Under the pieces are notes generated by a model. The model saw nothing but the letters and a program-made list of their open reading frames with translations. It made no database searches and had not been told where the DNA came from. From contig JAUSKC010000013.1 of the NCBI GenBank assembly GCA_030647125.1, forward strand, positions 2,249-66,248: 64,000 nt of DNA, written 5' to 3'. Positions 4,970-52,907 of this stretch are shown piece after piece. Numbering within the stretch: position 1 is the stretch's first letter; each line of letters starts with the position of its first letter. The translations under genes and the position numbers were made by a program. The stretch comes from Nanobdellota archaeon (GTDB lineage: Archaea; Nanobdellota; Nanobdellia; Pacearchaeales; GW2011-AR1).

Positions 4970-5110
4970 ATGGAAGCATACTGTGTTAAGTGTAAAGCAA
5001 AAAGAGAGATGAAAGACGGAAAAGAGTCAAAAACCGTTAAAGGCGTACGCATGATGAAAGGCAAGTGCCCTAAATGTGATACAACAATGTGCCGAATTCT
5101 CGGCAAGTAA
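4970..5110 (+). CDS. small zinc-ribbon protein (46 aa)
   Basis: ATG preceded by AAGGAGG; MEAYCVKCKAKREMKDGKESKTVKGVRMMKGKCPKCDTTMCRILGK with two CxxC pairs; below the 60-aa ORF cutoff, so absent from the track. Confidence 0.5.
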   Translation: MEAYCVKCKAKREMKDGKESKTVKGVRMMKGKCPKCDTTMCRILGK

Positions 5111-5181
5111 ACAATTTATTTTTATTTTTTACTATCTTTTTTAATCACAAAACTTAAAACCCCCAATCTTTTTCTCCAATT

Positions 5182-5481
5182 ATGATTTCAGTAAAAATTC
5201 ATAGATCTTACAGAGAGGTTGTTGCAATTGCCGATTCTGACTTAATTGGAAAAATCTTTGAAGAGGGAAACTTGCAGCTCAACGTCAAAGAAAATTTCTA
5301 CAAAGACAAAGAGCTTAATTTTGAAGAGGCAGTTGAGTTAATGATAGACCAAAAAAAAGAAGACGCAACTTTCAATATTATTGGGAAAAACGCAGTCAGC
5401 GCCGCGCTTGAAGCAGGAATCATATCTGAAGAAGGAATAAACGAAGTTCAGGACATTCCGTTCGCACTTGTACTTCTTTAA
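5182..5481 (+). CDS. DUF424-like small protein
   Basis: MISVKIHRSYREVVAIADSDLIGK... pattern resembles archaeal DUF424 family. Confidence 0.4.
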   Translation: MISVKIHRSYREVVAIADSDLIGKIFEEGNLQLNVKENFYKDKELNFEEAVELMIDQKKEDATFNIIGKNAVSAALEAGIISEEGINEVQDIPFALVLL

Positions 5482-12621: not shown

Positions 12622-13023
12622 TCAAACCTTAACCCTTTTTATTTCCTTAACCTTATCAAAATCAGAATCATCAGATATCATTGAATCACATCCATTTAAT
12701 ATTGCTGTAGCAGCATGAATAGCATCGCGCGGTTTTAATCCATATTTCTTAACTAATTCCTGCGCATAGCTAATAGTTTTTTTATTAACATCCAAAAAAA
12801 CCAAATTAGGAATAGATAAAAATTTCCTCCCTTCATCTATTGAATGCTCTTGCCCATAAAATTTTCTAATAACATGCACGATCTCATCCCAAGTCAAAAG
12901 GGAAGTGACTGCAGAAATTTTTTTATTAATAATCATTTTAATAAACCCTCGCGATTTGACAGAACGCGCATCTTTTTGGATAAGGGCGTGAACAAAGATA
13001 TTGCTATCAATATACTCGTTCAT
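12622..13023 (-). CDS. vapC: PIN-domain toxin (VapC-like)
   Basis: MNEYIDSNIFVHALI...; conserved acidic PIN residues; 17-nt overlap with upstream AbrB-type gene. Confidence 0.7.
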   Translation of the reverse strand: MNEYIDSNIFVHALIQKDARSVKSRGFIKMIINKKISAVTSLLTWDEIVHVIRKFYGQEHSIDEGRKFLSIPNLVFLDVNKKTISYAQELVKKYGLKPRDAIHAATAILNGCDSMISDDSDFDKVKEIKRVKV

Positions 13024-13255
13024 ATTCTTCGTCTAAGATTTTCTTTAATTCTTTGGTCGTAAGTCTCTTCTTCAATTTAGGCAGGCTAAAAAGATCTTCG
13101 AGGAATTTCTCAGTATCTTCTTCCTTTTTTAAAAGAACTTCATTATCTCTAACTTCAAAAACTACCTTTTTCCCATTATTTATACCAAGCATATCCCTAA
13201 TATCTTTAGGAATAACAACCTGTCCTTTCTCTCCAACATCTCTTACAATTCTCAT
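13007..13255 (-). CDS. vapB: AbrB/MazE/SpoVT-type antitoxin (VapB-like)
   Basis: Swapped-hairpin motif GEKGQVVIPKDIRDMLGINNGKKVVFEV. Confidence 0.6.
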   Translation of the reverse strand: MRIVRDVGEKGQVVIPKDIRDMLGINNGKKVVFEVRDNEVLLKKEEDTEKFLEDLFSLPKLKKRLTTKELKKILDEEYERVY

Positions 13256-40009: not shown

Positions 40010-43000
40010 TCATTCCAAATAAATCCCCGGCTTGCCCGGCTTAACTTTTTTGCTTTTTCCGTCCGGATCATATTTATCTTTATCATTAACAGCATAAACT
40101 TTTATATCAAGACCTGTTCGTTTTTTCAACTCATCAACGCTATCAACAAAATTCTTCTTTTCGTTAGGCAAAACATAAACCCAACATTTTGAAACTTCTT
40201 TTCCTTCCCGTTCTTTTATAATTTTAACAACGTGATTTATATCTTCAACAAGCTTTGCAACATCTTGCTCTTGCTTTTCCAAACTCTCATTAATCTTCGC
40301 TTCTTCAACTTTAGGCCATTCAGATGAAGAAATCAGACCAACACCTCCTATTTTCTCCCACATTTCTTCAGCTATGTGCGGGCAAAAAAGAGACAAAAGT
40401 TTCAAACCCTTTTCCAAAACTAATCTATCAGTTTCCAGAGGCAAAGAATTAAACAATTCCCTGACTTTTATAATTGCTAAGTTATATTTGAAATTTTCAA
40501 TCTGGTTCGTCATTTCTTTAATAATCTTATTCAATTTGCTTTCAATTTTAGCGTCTGATTTCTTAACAATCTTAACATTTTGAAAATAATCATAAACTTT
40601 ATTCAAGAATTTGAAGCTTCCAACAAGAACATTCTCATCCCAAAGAGTATCATTTTCAGGAGAAGCCAAACTCATTAAAGCCAAACGCAAAGAGTCCGCG
40701 CCATACTTCTTAATAATATCCAAAGGATTAATCACATTACCTAACGACTTTGACATCTTCTGCCCATCAGCGCCATGCAAAAGCCCTTGATTAAACAATT
40801 TAATAAACGGCTCATCAATTTCAGGAATCAAATCTAAATCCCTCAAGGCCTTTGTAAAAAAACGCGCGTAAATCAAATGCATCGTCGCATGTTCCGCGCC
40901 TCCAATATATTGATCAACAGGCATCCAGTATTTTACTTTATCAATTTCAAAAGGTTTTTTTGAATTTTCCGAGTCCAGATATCTCAAATAATACCAACTC
41001 GAATCAAAGAAAGTATCCATCGTGTCCGTCTCTCGTTTGGCTTTTCCATTACATGAAGGACATTTTACATTAATCCATTTTTCATTTGTTTTCAAAGGAT
41101 TTCCTTTTCCAAATTTAACTTTTTCAGGAAGAACAATAGGCAAGTCACTTTCTTTAATAGGAATAATTCCACACTTATCACAATAAACAACTGGAATAGG
41201 AGTTCCCCAATAACGCTGACGTGAAACCAACCAATCTCTTAATTTAAAATTAACAACCTTGCGTCCTAATTTTTTCTTTATTAAAAATTTAGTAATTTCT
41301 TCTTTAGCTTTTTCACTTTCCACTTCATCAAATTCATCCGAATTAATTAACCATCCTTCTCCAGTATAAGCTTTCGACTCTTTTGTAAAATCAATTTCTC
41401 CTTCCCTTGGCTGAATCACTGCCTTAATTTCAATATTGTATTTTCTTGCAAACAAATAATCCCTTTGGTCGTGAGCAGGCACAGCCATAACCATTCCACT
41501 CCCATAATCAGCGACGACAAAATTGCCGGCATAAACCGGAACTTTTTTATTATTTACAGGGTTTACAGCATAACTTCCTGTAAAGACACCTTCTTTGTCA
41601 AGTTCTTCAAGTTGTTTTTCAGAAACGCCTTTTAATTTTTTCAAGAATTTTTCTACTTCTTTCTTTTGTTTGTTAGAAACTAATTCCATAAGTCGCGGAT
41701 GCTGCGCTGAAACAACCATAAAAGTCACTCCGTAAATAGTATCTGGCCTTGTCGTAAATATAGACCACTTTTCATTTCCAATAATTTCATTTAAAAGTTC
41801 AGGAAATTCTCCTGTTCCCATATCATATATAGTATAATGCCCATGATTTTTTAATTCAATAATTTCGCCGCCCAAAGAATCATGAAAGATCTTAACGCTT
41901 TTCTTACCATCGGCTTCCTCATTATTTGCAGTAAAAATAATTACTTCACCAACTCTATCTTTAATTCCCAAGTCAATATTATAATCATAAAAATCTTTTG
42001 GAGCATTACCAGATTTAGCAATTTTCCAAGGTGCGACTAAAATTAGTTTTTTAATTTTCTTTTTAGTATCACCAAGCCATCTTACTAAAAATGCACAGCC
42101 GCAACTATGTCCAATTAAAACAGAATTCTCATCTATTTTATTTTTTTCGAATTCTTTCTTCCAATTATAATAATCAGCTTTCCAGGCCTCGGGCATTAAA
42201 GGAGAAAAAACCTTAATCTTTCTTTCCTCAAGTTTCTTTTTAATCCAAGGAATCCAATGTTTATCATAAGTTCTTTTTTCTTGAGAATACTCCGCTTTTT
42301 CAGCAGACGGACAACCATGAACAATCACAACATTAGAAAGTTTATTTGAATTTTCAATCTCAAACAAAATCTCCGTCCCTTCCGAACGTCCAATCCAATT
42401 CTTCTGCATCAACTTAATTCTTTCAGGCCAATATAACTTGTCAACCTTATCCAAAAGCTCGTCAGCATAATTTGTCGTTTTGATAAACCATTGTTCAAGT
42501 TGCTTGATTTCAACAGGTGTTTCAGGATGTCTCCAGCAACAACCACCATGAACTTGCTCATTCGCTAAAACCGTCTCACATTTACCACACCAATTAACCG
42601 GCGACTTTTTTCTATAAATTAAACCTTTTTCATAAAGTTTAAGAAAAAAATATTGATTCCATTTATAATATTCCGGCTTTGACGTCACAATCATTTTACT
42701 CCAATCGTAACTCAATCCTAACTTATGCTGTTGATTTACAAAATTTTTTATAGAATTTTCAGTGTACTTTCTAGGATGTTCCCCTGCTTTTATCGCCGCA
42801 TTTTCAGCAGGCAATCCAAAAGCATCGTAACCCATTGGATAAAGAACATTCATCCCTTGCATTCTCTTGAAGCGCGCATAAATATCCCCTATAGTATAAT
42901 TCAAAGCATGGCCCATATGCAGTCCAGCTGCCGATGGATACGGAAACATTTCAAGAACATAAAACTTCTTTTTCTTTTTCGTGCCTGCGGCGTCCGGGGA

Positions 43001-43072
43001 TACTTCAAAGACCTTCTTTTTTTCCCACTTACTCTGCCATTTTGTTTCTATCTTTTTAAAATCATAAACCAT
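40010..43072 (-). CDS. leuS: leucyl-tRNA synthetase (archaeal type) with inserted RBBP9/YdeN-like serine-hydrolase domain
   Basis: HMGH, KMSKS-type (KMSKSLGN), CP1 editing FTTRPDTIYGVTFMV; a ~180-aa alpha/beta-hydrolase module (VVIVHGCPSA...HWIPWIKKKLEE...IGHSCGCAF...LVAPW...HGHY) sits between GRSEGTEI and FTTRPDT. Confidence 0.9.
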   Translation of the reverse strand: MVYDFKKIETKWQSKWEKKKVFEVSPDAAGTKKKKKFYVLEMFPYPSAAGLHMGHALNYTIGDIYARFKRMQGMNVLYPMGYDAFGLPAENAAIKAGEHPRKYTENSIKNFVNQQHKLGLSYDWSKMIVTSKPEYYKWNQYFFLKLYEKGLIYRKKSPVNWCGKCETVLANEQVHGGCCWRHPETPVEIKQLEQWFIKTTNYADELLDKVDKLYWPERIKLMQKNWIGRSEGTEILFEIENSNKLSNVVIVHGCPSAEKAEYSQEKRTYDKHWIPWIKKKLEERKIKVFSPLMPEAWKADYYNWKKEFEKNKIDENSVLIGHSCGCAFLVRWLGDTKKKIKKLILVAPWKIAKSGNAPKDFYDYNIDLGIKDRVGEVIIFTANNEEADGKKSVKIFHDSLGGEIIELKNHGHYTIYDMGTGEFPELLNEIIGNEKWSIFTTRPDTIYGVTFMVVSAQHPRLMELVSNKQKKEVEKFLKKLKGVSEKQLEELDKEGVFTGSYAVNPVNNKKVPVYAGNFVVADYGSGMVMAVPAHDQRDYLFARKYNIEIKAVIQPREGEIDFTKESKAYTGEGWLINSDEFDEVESEKAKEEITKFLIKKKLGRKVVNFKLRDWLVSRQRYWGTPIPVVYCDKCGIIPIKESDLPIVLPEKVKFGKGNPLKTNEKWINVKCPSCNGKAKRETDTMDTFFDSSWYYLRYLDSENSKKPFEIDKVKYWMPVDQYIGGAEHATMHLIYARFFTKALRDLDLIPEIDEPFIKLFNQGLLHGADGQKMSKSLGNVINPLDIIKKYGADSLRLALMSLASPENDTLWDENVLVGSFKFLNKVYDYFQNVKIVKKSDAKIESKLNKIIKEMTNQIENFKYNLAIIKVRELFNSLPLETDRLVLEKGLKLLSLFCPHIAEEMWEKIGGVGLISSSEWPKVEEAKINESLEKQEQDVAKLVEDINHVVKIIKEREGKEVSKCWVYVLPNEKKNFVDSVDELKKRTGLDIKVYAVNDKDKYDPDGKSKKVKPGKPGIYLE

Positions 43073-43146: not shown

Positions 43147-43668
43147 ATGAACAAAATACACGCGCACCTTTCAGGAAACTCTGTGACTTCAAATTCATCA
43201 GACGCTTACACTTTGCAGCAAAAAAGTTCGTTTGGCGAGCGAGTTGAAAATAAAGTGCAATACTCCGCAGTCGAGGCCTTATATTTAGCAGAAAGAAATA
43301 AACTTGAAATATTCGACTCAAAAAATAAAAGTTTATCCATAGATCATTTGCAAAAAAGATTCCAGCAAATTGACAAGAAATTCAAATTAAAATATATTGT
43401 CTTCAAGGACTTACGAAATAAAGGTTACATTGTAAAAACTGCATTAAAATTTGGGGCGGAATTCCGTGTCTATCCAAAAGGAAGTTCTCCAGGCAAAACC
43501 CACTCAAAATGGATTGTTTTCACAGACCACGAATCAAAGAGCTTTAACTGGCATGAATTTTCTTCAAAAAATAGGGTTGCACACTCCACAAAAAAGAATC
43601 TCTTGCTTGCAATTGTTGATGAAGAATCAGATGTCACATATTATGAGATTAAATGGATTAAACCATAA
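43147..43668 (+). CDS. endA: tRNA-splicing endonuclease subunit
   Basis: Catalytic C-terminal domain KYIVFKDLRNKGYIVKTALKFGAEFRVYPKG...HSKWIV. Confidence 0.8.
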   Translation: MNKIHAHLSGNSVTSNSSDAYTLQQKSSFGERVENKVQYSAVEALYLAERNKLEIFDSKNKSLSIDHLQKRFQQIDKKFKLKYIVFKDLRNKGYIVKTALKFGAEFRVYPKGSSPGKTHSKWIVFTDHESKSFNWHEFSSKNRVAHSTKKNLLLAIVDEESDVTYYEIKWIKP

Positions 43669-43769
43669 ACAACATTGAAAATGTTTTTGTCATCATAACA
43701 AGCTTTAAAACATCAAAGATGTTTTCGTCATCAGGAAAGCTTTATAATTATTCTATATCTTCCTAATTT

Positions 43770-44675
43770 ATGGGACGCGATGCAACACTGATAAAAGATA
43801 AAATAATGAGCACGCTAAAATACAGAGGTCCGTCTCTGCCCGTGCATATTGCAAACGCAACCGGCCAAAGCATGCTCTTCTCAGGAGCATTTCTTTCAGA
43901 ACTTCTCGCGGAAAAAAAGATAAAAATCTCAGACATGAAAGTAGGTTCATCGCCAATTTACTTTCTTGAAGGACAAGAGCCGCAGCTTGAAAATTTTACA
44001 AAATACTTGAAGGGCAAGGAAAGGGAGGCTTTTGAAATATTAAAAGAAAAAAAATTCCTTAGGGATAAAAATCTGTCACCAGTAATTCGTATAGCTCTCC
44101 GCTCAATAAAGGACTTTGCAGTCCCTCTAAAATACAATGAAGAAATTTATTGGAAATATTATACAATTCCAACTTCAACTTTCAGTCCTGATATTTTTGC
44201 GCCAGAAAGAATTCATATAAAACAACCTGAGGAAAAAATAGTAAAACAAGAAACTGAAGAAAAAGAGGTGATAACATCGTCAGAGGAGGAAAAAGAGGTA
44301 ATAATATTACCAGAAGAAAAACCTAAAATTCACAAAACAAAAAAGCAAGCAAAGAAAAAGAAAACAGCAAAACAAGATGACAAATTTTTTAACAAAGTGA
44401 AAGACTATTTATCAAGCAAATCAATTGAAATCATCGGAATGGAGGGAATGACAAAAAATGATTTGACTTTAAAAGTCAAGGCAAAAAATAAAGAGAAGTT
44501 ATTAATTGCTTATAACAAGAAAAAAATTAGTGAGACAGAAATAATTAGAGCTCATAAAAAAGCTGAAGAAGCCAGATTGCCTTATATTATCTTAACAATG
44601 GGAGAAACACCTAAGAAAACAATAAGTTTAATGGACGCTCTAAAAACATTGGAAACAATAGAAAAAATTGAATAA
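43770..44675 (+). CDS. hypothetical protein, N-terminal winged-helix-like, Lys-rich linker
   Basis: 301 aa; leaderless-type TATA (CTTTATAAT) ~26 nt upstream of the ATG; preceded by the inverted-repeat element family. Confidence 0.35.
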   Translation: MGRDATLIKDKIMSTLKYRGPSLPVHIANATGQSMLFSGAFLSELLAEKKIKISDMKVGSSPIYFLEGQEPQLENFTKYLKGKEREAFEILKEKKFLRDKNLSPVIRIALRSIKDFAVPLKYNEEIYWKYYTIPTSTFSPDIFAPERIHIKQPEEKIVKQETEEKEVITSSEEEKEVIILPEEKPKIHKTKKQAKKKKTAKQDDKFFNKVKDYLSSKSIEIIGMEGMTKNDLTLKVKAKNKEKLLIAYNKKKISETEIIRAHKKAEEARLPYIILTMGETPKKTISLMDALKTLETIEKIE

Positions 44676-44711
44676 CCAAAGGTTTTTAAGGGAAAGTCAC
44701 AATTCAAAAAT

Positions 44712-44921
44712 ATGGGAAAGATTAAAGGAAAAATGGTAAAAAGAGCCTCAGAACAATTTATAAAATTAGGCGTGCCTTTTACATATGAATTTGAATTCAA
44801 TAAAAAAGTTCTTGGAAATGAAATGCCATCAAAAAAAATTCGTAATCAAACTGCTGGCTATCTTGCACGATTAAAAAAGATGGAATCAAAAAAGAAGGTA
44901 AAAATAGAAAAAATATTGTAA
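44712..44921 (+). CDS. rps17e: ribosomal protein S17e
   Basis: MGKIKGKMVKRASEQFI...SKKIRNQTAGYLARLKK matches the S17e N-terminal consensus. Confidence 0.8.
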   Translation: MGKIKGKMVKRASEQFIKLGVPFTYEFEFNKKVLGNEMPSKKIRNQTAGYLARLKKMESKKKVKIEKIL

Positions 44922-45118
44922 AATAATTCTATCATAAACTATTTAAACTTCAACTGCATAAGAAACTTATGAAAAGCTTTGATAAATCTGTTTTAGGCAT
45001 GATTTTATCTGAGCTAGTGGTCTCGTACTAATTGTGCGGGGCTATAAATTCTAAAATTTTATGGATTTTCAGCCCTTTTGCTTAAGACGTGACCGCCGCA
45101 AACTATAAGGAGGAAAAA

Positions 45119-45331
45119 ATGAAAGAATACAACCTAGAAACGTACAAAACTTTTTACGTCCCATCAAAAGATGGAAATGGAAGAACACAACCCTATTCCG
45201 AAGCTGAAAATGATTGGAAAGTAATGATGGACAAACAGGAAGAAGCATTAAGAAGTTTTAACATAATAGAAGCTAGAATGCCAGAAAAACCGAGACCGGC
45301 ACTAGAAAGAACAATAACGGAAAGAGAATAA
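45119..45331 (+). CDS. hypothetical protein
   Basis: Start set at MKEYNLE directly after AAGGAGGAAAAA RBS. Confidence 0.3.
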   Translation: MKEYNLETYKTFYVPSKDGNGRTQPYSEAENDWKVMMDKQEEALRSFNIIEARMPEKPRPALERTITERE

Positions 45332-45556
45332 TTATTTTTTATTTAATTTATCTATTTTCTTTTCTATTCTTTTTATATCATTGCTCATTTCTTCTAAAAG
45401 TTTTCTTCTTTTTCTATTGAAATATAAAGTAGCTATTTCTGCAATTATAAAAAATAGAATAACAACACCTACTGCTTGCAGAAACAAAACCACATTTCCC
45501 AAACTGATAATTAAATCAGGCAAATCTGCAGGTACGTTACTAATTTCAACAACCAT
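45332..45556 (-). CDS. hypothetical single-pass membrane protein
   Basis: TM helix plus charged coiled-coil tail. Confidence 0.3.
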   Translation of the reverse strand: MVVEISNVPADLPDLIISLGNVVLFLQAVGVVILFFIIAEIATLYFNRKRRKLLEEMSNDIKRIEKKIDKLNKK

Positions 45557-45597
45557 ATATAAAAATAGGGTGGATATTATTTAAACCTAACCACTAA

Positions 45598-45750
45598 CCT
45601 CAAACCTTTAAAACAACTTGTTTGTTTTCGTCTTCCTTATTTCCTTAAAACAATTTATTGTTTTCGTCAGTCAGGAAACCTTTAAAACAACTTGTTTGTT
45701 TTCGTCATCCAGAAAACCTTTTAAATATTGTTTCTCGTTTCATTTGTTAT
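45598..45750. repeat. four tandem ~37-nt units (two exact 31-nt copies) each with an AT-rich 7-bp inverted repeat, upstream of tRNA(CAT)
   Basis: AAACCTTTAAAACAACTTGTTTGTTTTCGTC at 45602..45632 and 45676..45706, degenerate copies between and after; hairpin AAAACAA-cttgt-TTGTTTT. Confidence 0.7.
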
Positions 45751-45799
45751 GGCTCTGTAGCTCAGAGGAAAACCCTCGTTCGCTACATCGCTAAACAAT

Positions 45800-45871
45800 G
45801 GCTCTGTAGCTCAGCGGTAGAGCGCGGCTCTCATAAGGCCGAGGCCGGGAGGTCAGCACTCCTCAGAGCCA
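45800..45871 (+). tRNA. tRNA(CAT) (Met or Ile2) with non-canonical T-loop
   Basis: Acceptor GGCTCTG/CAGAGCC, D-arm GCTCAGCGGTAGAGC, anticodon stem CGGCT/GGCCG with loop CTCATAA; T-loop reads GTCAGCA rather than TTCRANT. Confidence 0.6.
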
Positions 45872-46273
45872 TTATTTATTAACAAAAATCCTAAACCCAT
45901 CATCTTCCTTCCTCGGCAAGATATGAAAATGCACATGATTAACTTCTTGTCCACCTGCCTTAAAATTATTAGAAACAACATTAAAACCTTCACATTTCAA
46001 TTCCTTACCAAGTTTAGCGTAAGTATTCTTAACACAATCAATTAATTCTGTTCCTAACGACGACGGCATATCAAGAACATTTTTAAAATGCTTTTTTGAA
46101 ATAACTAAAGAATGGCCCTCCACCTTTGGATGAGCATCTTTTATCGAAAAGAAATTTTCATTTTCATAAATTCGTGGAACACGAACTTCACCAAAAGCAA
46201 TCTTACAAAATATACAATCATCCATAAAAAACAAAGAAACTAGAAATATAAAAACCTTATCATAAAAAACCAC
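45872..46273 (-). CDS. HIT-family hydrolase
   Basis: Histidine triad NHVHFHILPR. Confidence 0.8.
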   Translation of the reverse strand: MVFYDKVFIFLVSLFFMDDCIFCKIAFGEVRVPRIYENENFFSIKDAHPKVEGHSLVISKKHFKNVLDMPSSLGTELIDCVKNTYAKLGKELKCEGFNVVSNNFKAGGQEVNHVHFHILPRKEDDGFRIFVNK

Positions 46274-46483: not shown

Positions 46484-48370
46484 TTAAACCAATTTCCCAG
46501 AATCTTCAAACTCCTTTTCTCCATCAATTAACTGTCTTAACACATTTTTCAAATCTTTTATCTTTACTCTTATTTGTTTTGTAGTATCACGCTCGCGAAT
46601 AGTAACATCTTGTTGTTTTGTTGAATCCTCGTCGATAGTTATGCAATATGGAGTCCCAGCCTCATCATTTCGAGCGTATCTCCTTCCAATGCTACCACTT
46701 TTATCATAAATAACATTCCACTCTTTTCTCAAATCTTCCAAGATTTCGCGGCAAATATCTTCATATTCATCTTTTTTTATTATAGGAAATATTGCGGCCT
46801 TAACTGGTGCCAACCTTGGATTTAATTTTAAAATAACATTCTGCCTTTTCTCGTCGGGAGAATAAGCGCTAAACATAAAAACCAAAAACGCCCTTTCAAA
46901 TCCCAATGATGGTTCACATACTACTTGAGGCAAAATCTTCTTACCGGTTTTCTCGTCCAGAATGTGTAAATCCTTTCCAGAGAATTTTTCATGTTGAGAC
47001 AAATCAAAATTCCCCCTATCTGCAAAGCCTAAAAGTTCTTTCCACCCGAAAGGAAATTCATATTCTAAATCCCATGTGTCTTGAGAATAATGCGCTTTCT
47101 CTTCCGAAACATGCTGCCTTATTCTGAATTTATCTTTATTTGCGCCAAGAGAAATAAACCACAAATATTCATTTGCTATCCAATAAGCATGCCATTTGTT
47201 TTTTATAACATGTGATTCAAGCGCCTCTTTTAATTTCATTTTCCTCGCGTCCTCATTCCCCTTTTGCATCTCCGAAGAATAAATCATAATTTCCACATCA
47301 GGAATTTTATAAGGGCATTCATCTTCAGGATTTACAAAATACTCAATTTCCATTTGTTCAAATTCCCTACATCTAAATAAAAAATCTCTCGGGGCAATTT
47401 CATTTCTAAAAGCCTTTCCTTGCTGCGCAATTCCACACGGAAGTTTCAATCGTGCATTGTCAAAAACAAGTTTGAAATCAGCAAATATCAACTGCGCAGT
47501 TTCCGGCCTCAAATATGCCTTTACAGAATCTTCAACAACAGGGCCAACTTGCGTCGTGAACATCGGATTAAATTCTCCTTTAATTTCATAATTAGAATTA
47601 TTTTCATATTTCTTCACTTCGTATTTATCAACTTTAAACTTCTCCTTTGTTTTTTTATTTACAACTGCGACATCAACAAAACTTGCAACATGCCCACTCG
47701 CTTCCCAAACTTTCGGGTTCGTCACAATCGCTCCGTCAATTCCCACAATATCATCCCGTTGATAAACATGATATTTCCACCATTCATTTTTCAAGTTCTT
47801 TTTCATTTCAGCCCCAAGAACTCCAAAATCCCAAAATCCAGACAGACCCCCATAAATCTCCCCAGAAGGATAAACAAATCCTTTTCTTTTACAAAATGCA
47901 GCCATTTCATCAACTGATATTTCAGAACTATTTTTTACCTTGTTATTTCCTATAAGATTATTTCTTGGTTTATAATTTATAAGAAATTCCTTACCTAAAT
48001 CTGTAAGAAAGTAACCACCATCTCTATTATCTTTTTTAATATAATTTTTATCAGCCAACTTATTTAATATTAAACTAACTTCAGATTTATCGAGAGATAA
48101 TTCTTTACCAATAAATTCTGGATAACCTATATGATCATCACACATATAAACTATCTTATATGCAATTTCCTCATCGATTATAATATCTTTATCTTCTATT
48201 TTTGTTTTCTTGTTAACCATATTTTCAAATTTCCGTTTGGCTTCTTCCTTGTTTTTGCCCAGGTACGCGACGTTTTTAGATTTAACTTTTTCCCCTTCTC
48301 TTACTGACTCGCGCATATAATAATATTCCCCGCCGTTGATTTTCTTCCGGACTATGTAAGCCATAAACAA
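46484..48370 (-). CDS. glyS: glycyl-tRNA synthetase (archaeal/eukaryotic class II) with ~140-aa N-terminal extension
   Basis: RKGFVYPSGEIYGGLSGFWDFGVLGAEMKKN core; N-terminal MFMAYIVRKKINGGEYYYMRES...wHTH-like segment precedes it in frame. Confidence 0.9.
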   Translation of the reverse strand: MFMAYIVRKKINGGEYYYMRESVREGEKVKSKNVAYLGKNKEEAKRKFENMVNKKTKIEDKDIIIDEEIAYKIVYMCDDHIGYPEFIGKELSLDKSEVSLILNKLADKNYIKKDNRDGGYFLTDLGKEFLINYKPRNNLIGNNKVKNSSEISVDEMAAFCKRKGFVYPSGEIYGGLSGFWDFGVLGAEMKKNLKNEWWKYHVYQRDDIVGIDGAIVTNPKVWEASGHVASFVDVAVVNKKTKEKFKVDKYEVKKYENNSNYEIKGEFNPMFTTQVGPVVEDSVKAYLRPETAQLIFADFKLVFDNARLKLPCGIAQQGKAFRNEIAPRDFLFRCREFEQMEIEYFVNPEDECPYKIPDVEIMIYSSEMQKGNEDARKMKLKEALESHVIKNKWHAYWIANEYLWFISLGANKDKFRIRQHVSEEKAHYSQDTWDLEYEFPFGWKELLGFADRGNFDLSQHEKFSGKDLHILDEKTGKKILPQVVCEPSLGFERAFLVFMFSAYSPDEKRQNVILKLNPRLAPVKAAIFPIIKKDEYEDICREILEDLRKEWNVIYDKSGSIGRRYARNDEAGTPYCITIDEDSTKQQDVTIRERDTTKQIRVKIKDLKNVLRQLIDGEKEFEDSGKLV

Positions 48371-49523: not shown

Positions 49524-49668
49524 ATTTATGATTTTCCTAAATCCAACTCTTATTTAAAGATATTGATGAACTTAATAGAAACATTTTAAATAGATATTTT
49601 TAATTGATATTCTATGCCCTGATTCGGCCAAGCATGGACGAAGCAGGGTGAACGAATGAAATTCGTAA

Positions 49669-52827: not shown

Positions 52828-52907
52828 GCGGCATTCAACGGAGGCAATTAAAAAATGCCGCTGAACAGTGCTTTGAGGAAGTTCGAAAGAAACCAGTGGG
52901 TGTCTTT
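52828..52907 (+). repeat. conserved hairpin-containing element, copy A
   Basis: Hairpin GCGGCATT-(caacggaggcaattaaaa)-AATGCCGC, then ...CAGTGCTTTGAGGAAGTTCGAAAGAAACCAGTGGGTGTCTTT; 42/44-nt identical to copy B. Confidence 0.6.

Follow-up and report, generated by a model that had tools for sequence, protein, structure and literature searches.

A recently copied 36–38-nt promoter-hairpin cassette, single or stacked upstream of tRNA and protein-gene promoters in one genus of Nanobdellota archaea

The DNA analysed here (64,000 nucleotides, hereafter the window) has a G+C content of 33% and carries genes for EndA, S17e, S8e, S3Ae, aIF1A, aIF2-beta, TFB and TFE-alpha, along with eight tRNA genes without encoded CCA, a gene content that marks it as archaeal. 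Upstream of one of the tRNA genes, an elongator-type tRNA-Met, positions 45602–45750 consist of three head-to-tail units of 36–38 nt followed by the resident tRNA-Met promoter. A related element lies near 43.7 kb, ahead of a gene for a 301-aa protein. The features of the two loci are as follows.

43669–43698, plus strand: V0, a decayed unit directly 3' of the EndA stop codon; weak HMM match.
43699–43735, plus strand: unit V1, type C, AAGCTTTAAAAC; unit-HMM 8e-08, PWM 10.1, predicted +1 at 43733.
43736–43769, plus strand: resident promoter of the 301-aa protein gene, AAAGCTTTATAATTATTCTATATCTTCCTAATTT; PWM 9.6.
43770–44675, plus strand: conserved gene for a 301-aa protein, between EndA and S17e.
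45577–45594, minus strand: BRE/TATA of a divergent gene for a 74-aa membrane protein (45332–45556, minus strand); PWM 8.1, predicted +1 at 45556, which is the ATG.
45602–45639, plus strand: unit U1, type A; unit-HMM 2e-09, PWM 9.2, predicted +1 near 45635.
45640–45675, plus strand: unit U2, type B; repeat family, unit-HMM 1e-07, hairpin fold.
45676–45712, plus strand: unit U3, type A; unit-HMM 2e-11, PWM 9.9, predicted +1 at 45709–45710.
45713–45750, plus strand: resident tRNA promoter, AAAACCTTTTAAATATTGTTTCTCGTTTCATTTGTTAT, degenerate and type-B-like; PWM 10.2, predicted +1 at 45747–45749.
45749–45797, plus strand: duplication-derived leader of 49 nt, comprising a 20-nt copy of the tRNA 5' end and a further 29 nt.
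45799–45872, plus strand: tRNA-Met (CAT), elongator-type, without encoded CCA.

The array is by far the strongest tandem array of the window (Tandem Repeats Finder: 45602–45725, period 38, 3.3 copies, 73% matches, score 143). The pattern CTTTAAAACA-N7-TGTTTTCGTC has three exact matches in the window, compared to 0.04 expected, and none of 100 shuffles reached three. Both results confirm the observation made in the initial annotation: the array is real and non-random. The 31-mer AAACCTTTAAAACAACTTGTTTGTTTTCGTC occurs twice without a mismatch, at 45602–45632 and 45676–45706, exactly as that annotation had claimed. When up to two mismatches are allowed, TGTTTTCGTCATC is found seven times, compared to 2.3 expected, and five of these matches fall within the two loci. 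Across the window, an HMM of the unit detected, beyond the known units, only a remnant at 43679–43694. Logan contig L001, an independent k-mer assembly from another read set, contains the 43.7-kb element and stops within the first 31-mer, as expected of an assembly graph that breaks at a true repeat. Rfam searches of 43600–45900 (gathering thresholds and E ≤ 1) returned nothing except the tRNA.

The claim that the array is not a CRISPR holds. There are no spacers at the 37–38-nt period, since the stretch between the two 31-mers is itself a unit, and the neighbouring genes encode no Cas domains. A replication origin of the ORB type was also rejected, given direct repeats, no Orc1/Cdc6 domain in the scanned window ORFs and no skew shift. 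It should also be noted that, while four tandem units had been counted, only three are units; the supposed fourth (45713–45750) is the resident tRNA promoter, which is orthologous to the single promoters of a sister-species locus (L084) and a more distant relative (L090) and has CTCGTTT in common with them.

Each unit has a BRE/TATA core, (A)AAC(C)TTTAAAAC, as its first part. The 3' half of the TATA box also serves as the left arm (AAAACAA or AAAACAT) of an inverted repeat, which continues with a variable loop of 2–5 nt and the invariant block TGTTTTCGTC, made up of the right arm and CGTC. In U1, the BRE/TATA-like sequence is AAACCTTTAAAAC, the arms AAAACAA (45610–45616) and TTGTTTT (45622–45628) enclose the loop CTTGT, and CGTC occupies 45629–45632. 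U3 is identical to U1 over its first 31 nt, with arms at 45684–45690 and 45696–45702 and CGTCATC at 45703–45709. U2 has a weaker TATA box (CCTTAAAAC), arms AAAACAAT (45647–45654) and ATTGTTTT (45657–45664), a TT loop, and CGTC at 45665–45668. The BRE/TATA of the divergent membrane-protein gene adjoins the array and lies outside it.

The relationship proposed for the element near 43.7 kb is borne out: 43699–43752 is a third member of the array's repeat family and is 65% identical to the 45.6-kb locus over 54 nt. V1 has arms AAAACATC (43707–43714) and GATGTTTT (43718–43725), the loop AAA, and CGTCATC at 43726–43732. In V0, ATGTTTTTGTCATC (43681–43694) is the only clearly kept part; its distance upstream of its counterpart is 38 nt, and not 41 nt as first described. 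The TATA box of the gene behind starts at 43741, 29 nt before the ATG. The 301-aa protein is identical to Q7S56_01885, a hypothetical protein from a Nanoarchaeota archaeon in NCBI, which places it in DPANN; its relatives carry the label Pacearchaeota. It has a pair of winged helices at its N-terminus and an alpha/beta domain at its C-terminus, joined by a disordered linker. There was no match in Pfam or NCBIfam, a PDB profile search gave E ~0.2, and the AlphaFold model (pLDDT 78.5) retrieved only generic winged-helix matches (E ≥ 1.6e-3).

Upstream of 63 genes, we found 47 matches to a TATA-like hexamer starting 28–29 nt before the ATG. This spacing implies leaderless transcripts, and hence a genome that is almost entirely leaderless. 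A promoter PWM built from 30 such promoters (consensus CAnAAnnTTTATAAA; training mean 11.3, sd 2.8) scored U1, U3 and V1 at 9.2–10.1 and the two resident promoters at 9.6 and 10.2, all in the top 0.05% of genome positions; U2 scored below 5. As U1, U3 and V1 match the resident promoters in score, each unit amounts to a full BRE/TATA core, with weak TATA boxes in U2 and in W3. The +1 of a unit is predicted at CATC/CAG, 6–7 nt before the next BRE, and the unit tail, CAG(G)AAAC(C), serves the following promoter as its BRE. The flank CRGRAAASC, listed in the initial annotation as a conserved part of the element, is therefore the BRE of the next promoter. The genome's real promoters hold little information at −13 to −3 in the PWM. 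Pairs of strong same-strand promoters exactly 37 nt apart occur in the window only at these two loci, so we rejected promoter stacking as a general habit of the genome.

The last promoter of the array had been taken as placed for the tRNA. Its predicted +1 lies about 2–4 nt before the copy of the tRNA 5' end (45749–45768), which is identical to 45798–45817 at 19 of 20 positions, and the real tRNA begins 49 nt further. The promoter is thus placed for the copy and not for the tRNA at 45799–45872. The 49-nt leader is predicted to form a hairpin of its own, and it is missing from both the sister species and the outgroup.

The exact pattern was searched for in a set of prokaryotic genomes, one per species, and in metagenomes. 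Among the genomes, true relatives were confined to the Nanoarchaeota MAG H32-bin101_1 from Hainich groundwater (three loci/contigs); among the metagenomes, they were seen only on Hainich H51 contigs, which belong to the same organism. This sister species is ~86% identical to the window (84–94% in coding DNA) and has the same gene order. It carries units at four loci.

L027/L055: three units before tRNA-iMet.
L020/L030: one unit before tRNA-Ser(UGA).
L017/L066: one unit before a DUF424 gene in the aIF2-beta/aIF1A cluster.
L043/L062: one unit before ribosomal protein L35Ae.

The remaining genome and metagenome matches lie in bacterial coding regions and do not belong to the family. Thirteen viral contigs have single matches to TTAAAACA-N5-8-TGTTTTCGTC with no likeness beyond the pattern, and were attributed to chance. 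L032 and L048 appeared suggestive at first but lack the family context, and the tRNA-iMet context is absent from P0123/L096. Exact-protein look-ups with the HIT gene for further assemblies of the array gave no match. The match in L023 (Methanosarcinales) is a genuine tRNA-Asn promoter, with the tRNA beginning 34 nt after the C of CTTTAAAAC; this is either a coincidence or a hint that the unit originated from a tRNA-type promoter.

At all six loci of the two species, the units have the same orientation as the resident BRE/TATA and lie 35–40 nt (~37 nt) upstream of it. The distance from the dyad centre to the next TATA is constant at 23.5–26 nt. The TATA box that the initial annotation placed beside the element is therefore present in 6/6 cases, ahead of a leaderless start or a tRNA; what that description missed is that a BRE/TATA-like box stands at the start of every unit. 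Triple stacks are restricted to tRNA genes (two tRNA-Met genes), while leaderless protein genes have one or two units. By binomial arithmetic, the over-representation of tRNA genes reaches only P ~0.02 (3/6 loci compared to 8/71 window genes). Translation genes as a whole are not significantly enriched against the window genes, as about one third of these are translation-related. Other small insertions and duplications accompany the units at the tRNA genes that carry them.

Unit types A and B are present in both species, and unit cores of 23–32 nt, loops included, are identical between them. The 23-nt core of U2 recurs unchanged in L020 and L027, and U3 matches the sister-species unit before the DUF424 gene, which is the best pair, at 41 of 42 nt. 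These pairs occupy non-orthologous sites. Orthologous sites show the reverse pattern. In the sister species, a single promoter precedes the tRNA-Met gene, and both the units and the 5' copy are absent. The sister counterpart of the 301-aa gene (303 aa, L084) has a nearly identical core promoter without a unit ahead, and a 118-nt, partly G-rich insert takes the place of V0 and V1; the unit HMM detected no unit across the whole 18.7-kb syntenic sister locus. Conversely, the window's DUF424 gene is without the unit that the sister species has, and also without a ~600-bp segment with a deaminase gene found at the sister site. In total, none of the three orthologous promoters compared (tRNA-Met, 301-aa, DUF424) has units in both species.

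In L090, from a more distant relative (54% protein identity), tRNA-Met and a 306-aa gene each have a single promoter, as does tRNA-iMet in two outgroups. Wherever a filled site has a counterpart in an outgroup, namely at tRNA-Met, the 301-aa gene and tRNA-iMet, that counterpart is therefore empty. With the outgroup empty at three of the four comparable filled sites, the units at these three are lineage-specific gains; the DUF424 site, for which there is no outgroup, could be a gain or a loss. Since units are more alike across species than coding DNA, and at non-orthologous sites, they have been copied and did not evolve site by site. Together, the unshared orthologous sites and the 41/42 identity identify a recently copied promoter-hairpin cassette, as opposed to a conserved operator. 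Within a single genus, copies were recently placed one period upstream of resident promoters and in the same orientation.

These data bear directly on the dimeric-factor operator proposed in the initial annotation. A genus-specific dimeric factor would bind AAAACA-N6/7-TGTTTT(CGTC), centred ~25 nt upstream of the resident TATA (about −54), as an operator or upstream activating site; it would activate or repress a small set of tRNA- and ribosome-related promoters, with stacks allowing cooperative binding. The dyad itself is present, and its constant distance to the next TATA, the promoter-proximal position and gene-wise orientation at 6/6 loci, the three to five loci per genome and the identity of the genes behind (tRNAs, L35Ae, an aIF1A-adjacent gene and an S17e-adjacent gene) would suit a small regulon. 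However, a conserved operator or regulon predicts that orthologous promoters share the unit, and 0/3 do so in the sister species, while 3/3 outgroup sites are empty. The identical cores at non-orthologous sites, loops included, point to copying. Furthermore, the half-sites lie 6 nt apart in some units and 7 nt apart in others, the left one is itself the TATA box of a promoter core of full strength, and only one pair covaries. Neither nearby candidate regulator fits well: the AbrB-like protein, encoded 30 kb away, is a MazE-type antitoxin paired with a PIN toxin, and the 301-aa gene with its tandem winged helices carries a unit in one species only. Known archaeal factor sites (Ptr2 upstream activating sites, the TrmBL1 TGM motif, NrpR operators) are dyads at a fixed distance from TATA, sometimes in tandem, which are conserved at orthologous promoters and are not known to be full promoter cores. 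The cassette differs from them in its lineage-specific occupancy and in the use of the TATA box as left half-site. The data support the operator reading only in part, and we consider an operator unlikely.

The dyad nevertheless calls for an explanation. The inverted repeats noted initially are real: they fold as 7–8-bp hairpins, and the dyad is present in 11/11 units of both species, with 94% of cells paired; the hairpins are weak as single-stranded DNA (−4 to −5.5 kcal/mol). The dyad and the adjoining CGTC are the sole invariant blocks among the 11 units, where only TTAAAACA, TGTTTT and the GT of CGTC are invariant columns, and loop and tail vary. The spacing between AAAACA and TGTTTT is 7 nt in types A and C and 6 nt in type B and the L043 unit. 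A compensatory half-site change had been noted in the initial annotation. One pair has indeed changed, but in two sequences that possibly reflect a single event, and 6/8 pairs never vary; with one informative pair, we dropped covariation as proof of the hairpin. Template switching within inverted repeats can also yield compensatory changes without selection (PMC8604942). A pure promoter would not need TGTTTTCGTC, yet this block is invariant, so something else constrains the dyad. The constraint could be a factor, hairpin-dependent copying, or template switching that keeps the arms alike (PMC8604942, PMC5941160). The constancy of the right arm hints at a protein or structure that reads the dyad as well.

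V1 provides the clearest view of an insertion. The insert is exactly 37 nt long, with the 8-nt sequence AAGCTTTA at both edges, and the empty site reads ATCATAACAACCTTTA/TAATT. These edges suggest insertion of a single period at the TATA region, either by way of BRE/TATA microhomology or with a target duplication. V1 differs from the promoter behind it and is no duplicate of that promoter. This distinguishes it from a product of neutral local slippage, in which the resident tRNA promoter would simply have been duplicated in tandem, without function or dispersal. Some features of the tRNA-Met locus speak for slippage: the identity of U1 and U3 over 31 nt implies a recent duplication of 74 nt (two units), the 49-nt tandem duplication takes in the tRNA 5' end, and the ancestral tRNA-Met promoter (L084, L090) has the AAACAACT and CGTTTTC-like segments of type-A units. 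However, five further promoters, unlinked to this one and spread over two species, also carry the cassette, and the residents there are unrelated in sequence beyond BRE/TATA. Slippage thus accounts for growth of the array but not for the family, which contradicts it as a full explanation and makes it, in our view, very improbable.

A selfish, REP-like miniature element is another possible explanation. An HUH/Y1 transposase or a tyrosine recombinase would cut at the hairpin and CGTC and insert the unit at AT-rich TATA sequences, and the likeness to a promoter would be a by-product of target duplication. Presence and absence between close relatives, near-identical copies, a stem that is conserved while the loops vary, the sharing of sub-families A, B and C by both species, the 8-nt direct repeat around V1 and the accompanying small insertions and duplications are all in keeping with such an element, and a palindrome beside CGTC recalls the CGTC-tagged REPs, which have no known dedicated transposase (PMC3733652). 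On the other hand, there are only three loci in a whole MAG, orientation and ~37-nt phase are strict at 6/6 loci, and the unit ends lack terminal inverted repeats. A scan of the window ORFs of 80 aa or more, other than a 2039-aa ORF, and of the sister-locus gene tables revealed no transposase or integrase domain, and no RAYT/Y1 transposase was seen within the 64-kb window and ~100 kb of the sister-species loci. We regard this reading as slightly less likely than an operator.

The comparison with REPs is informative in both directions. Like REPs, the cassette is an extragenic palindromic repeat of 20–40 nt with a 7–9-bp stem, A/T outer positions and a 4–5-nt loop, and like the CGTC-tagged REPs it has CGTC (or TGTC) beside the stem, occurs in single and clustered units, and falls into sub-families (PMC3733652). 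CGTC-tagged REPs are, however, described from bacterial phyla at tens to hundreds of copies (Di Nocera et al. 2013; PMC3733652), whereas the cassette exists as a handful of copies, head-to-tail, upstream of promoters in an archaeal host; REPs form head-to-head dimers and lie mostly downstream of ORFs. In addition, the tag of the cassette is 3' of the stem and not 5' as in CGTC-REPs (on the opposite strand, GACG-stem), and the other end is CTTT, with no CCA tail. Given the tag side, the far lower copy number and the differing context, we rejected membership of the CGTC-REPs. The cassette also differs from a MITE in that its inverted repeat is internal; AAGCTTTA flanks V1 as a direct repeat, and other sites match it partly.

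Enzymatic movement and promoter function could also be combined. In a mobile cis-regulatory cassette, an enzyme would read the hairpin and CGTC, the unit would insert into and duplicate a strong BRE/TATA, and copies would be kept because stacked promoters raise the expression of tRNA and ribosomal genes in a genome-reduced DPANN archaeon. If true, archaea would have an equivalent of REP or Correia elements, aimed at TATA boxes, but we hold this reading to be no more probable than the operator. The cassette is like Correia/ERIC-type elements (cited in PMC3575422) in that these are small repeats carrying promoter activity to new genes; they are bacterial, 100–150 bp long, and have terminal inverted repeats and target duplications, while the cassette is 37 nt and without terminal inverted repeats.

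The explanation we favour, at slightly better than even confidence and from the DNA sequence, is that the array is a lineage-specific stack of a dispersed 36–38-nt promoter-hairpin cassette whose units act as extra promoters. Each cassette would bind TBP/TFB, with a predicted transcription start ~29 nt past TATA, near CATC/CAG, and a stack would add entry sites that pass RNA polymerase on to the gene behind it. Where that gene encodes a tRNA, RNase P would cut off the additional leader, leaving long stacks free of cost. Stacked promoters are favoured because the units are competent TBP/TFB sites by sequence and triple stacks occur only where leaders are processed. In M. jannaschii, the strongest TBP/TFB binders are tRNA promoters (PMC2602779), and reuse of a promoter before unrelated genes is a described phenomenon (PMC3575422). 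Several points count against stacking. The invariant TGTTTTCGTC is more than a pure promoter needs, and the TATA boxes of U2 and W3 are weak. From known footprint sizes, units 37 nt apart cannot all carry a pre-initiation complex simultaneously, and an upstream start may be useless at protein genes, where it would give otherwise leaderless mRNAs a 37-nt leader with no Shine-Dalgarno.

Several direct promoter repeats before an archaeal stable-RNA gene have a possible precedent. Work of the 1980s by Mankin and by Dennis reportedly described repeated units with tandem promoters ahead of the rRNA operons of halobacteria, all facing the gene; those repeats are said to be longer and confined to the rRNA operon, with leaders removed by processing. 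The 37-nt unit differs in that it also occurs at protein-gene promoters and varies between sister species.

As to how stacked cassettes arose, copying may have proceeded through BRE/TATA microhomology, by template switching or ectopic conversion of exactly one period; alternatively, a protein recognising the hairpin and CGTC may have been involved. The BRE of a unit matches the BRE behind it perfectly at two sites and poorly at others, and the copy mechanism as a whole is a conjecture.

The closest concepts for the cassette are putative mobile promoters (PMC3575422) and REP elements. As with mobile promoters, near-identical promoter DNA stands before unrelated genes, within a genome and across relatives, with no known mobile element attached (PMC3575422). 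The published families, mostly from bacteria, were defined by at least 80% identity over at least 50 nt in the region −150 to −50 (Matus-Garcia, Nijveen & van Passel 2012; PMC3575422). High identity is confined here to the unit of 31–42 nt, below that threshold, although the concept fits. The cassette further differs from mobile promoters in being only 37 nt long, in containing a complete archaeal BRE/TATA core and a conserved hairpin, and in stacking in phase before an existing promoter without replacing it.

The cassette is real, and an unusual feature in genomes as streamlined as these. The genomes of DPANN archaea are very small and densely packed, and to our knowledge little is known about their transcription regulation and repeats. 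The scope of the finding is narrow (one genus and a handful of loci), and it carries a caution for annotation, as dyad repeats adjacent to TATA boxes are not necessarily conserved operators. Within this genus, the cassette is seen in the middle of its spread between the promoters of sister species, with filled and empty sites at hand. It offers a natural experiment on how archaeal promoters duplicate, stack and rewire, and on whether stacked BRE/TATA cores raise tRNA output.

Every tRNA gene preceded by promoter-hairpin units, both in the window and in the sister species (Hainich groundwater Nanoarchaeota), is also accompanied by a partial copy of itself.

Window 45749-45817: 20-nt copy of the tRNA 5' part, 49 nt upstream of the tRNA gene
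L027 5528-5696, minus strand: tRNA-iMet, then an insert and a copy of the tRNA 3' end
L020 2990-3158, minus strand: tRNA-Ser(UGA), then an insert and a copy of the tRNA 3' end

On the 3' side of the sister-species tRNA-iMet and tRNA-Ser(UGA) genes, a 70-75-nt insert is followed in each case by 18-19 nt that repeat the tRNA 3' end. These inserts are similar to one another, and both start with the complement of the T-arm. Partial self-copies were found at none of the 11 other tRNA genes and were also absent from the outgroup orthologues.

A conserved element of ~75 nt, …TTCAACGGAGGCAAT…CAGTGCTTTGAGGAAGTTCAAAAGAAACCAGnGGGTGTCTTTTAA, is shared by the window and the sister-species loci.

Window 52834-52907, 62958-63037 and 63610-63694: copies of the ~75-nt element
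L027 7184-7266 and L043 447-518: sister-species copies

Its 3' end coincides exactly with the start of a tRNA-Leu, S3Ae, tRNA-Thr or L10e-like gene, the tRNA-Thr copy being weak. The first hairpin shows covariation (GCGGCAT/ATGCCGC, GCGAT/ATCGC and GTGGCAT/ATGCCAC), and the element is probably structured. No match to it was found in Rfam.

The decayed unit and unit designated V0/V1 lie before the gene for a 301-aa protein.

Window 43770-44675: gene for the 301-aa protein

This gene sits between EndA and S17e in all four genomes examined. The protein consists of two winged helices, a charged disordered linker and a C-terminal alpha/beta domain. More than 1700 homologues were detected at E<=1e-5, some labelled Nanoarchaeota or Pacearchaeota, while searches for a family or a close structural match returned neither. 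At the syntenic sister-species locus, the V0/V1 position is occupied by a different insert (L084 9841-9980), which holds two AAAATACTTTA boxes at a spacing of 34 nt and a G-rich tract, gggtggaaggttgggggttggtgggtggg. This tract is very unusual for a genome of 33% G+C and looks able to form a G-quadruplex.

Upstream of the sister-species DUF424 gene, a segment of ~600 bp carries one unit together with the gene for a 170-aa deaminase of the cytidine/tRNA type and the promoter of that gene (L066 9717-10229, plus strand of the locus). No such segment separates the zinc-ribbon and DUF424 genes in the window (5110-5182).

The initial annotation had named a nearby AbrB-like protein among its candidate regulators. 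This is probably the MazE/AbrB-type antitoxin of an ordinary toxin-antitoxin pair.

Window 12622-13255, minus strand: PIN toxin and MazE/AbrB-type antitoxin

Observations were also made on two aminoacyl-tRNA synthetases encoded in the window.

Window 40010-43072, minus strand: leucyl-tRNA synthetase, 1020 aa
Window 46484-48370, minus strand: glycyl-tRNA synthetase ORF, 628 aa as listed with a TTG start

The leucyl enzyme carries an inserted serine-hydrolase domain; since in Hainich strains the gene encodes 1022 aa, encodes 824 aa or is split, this insert is variable. The glycyl-tRNA synthetase ORF, as listed, has a winged-helix-like extension at its N-terminus. For the sister-species gene the call is 556 aa, which reflects either a variable extension or a difference in the start call.

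At tRNA-Arg(TCT), the TATA box is placed ~80 nt upstream of the gene (window 49583-49668). The resulting G+C-richer leader of ~55-60 nt (atgccctgattcggccaagcatggacgaagcagggtgaacgaatgaaattcgtaa) may undergo processing or may represent a small RNA. The sister-species tRNA-Arg(TCT) appears to contain an intron. Finally, the exact pattern CTTTAAAACA-N7-TGTTTTCGTC occurs in an unrelated Methanosarcinales MAG (L023 6260-6366), where it is the promoter of tRNA-Asn, with 34 nt from the C of the pattern to the tRNA start. This match may be due to chance, or it may hint that the units originated from a tRNA-type promoter.
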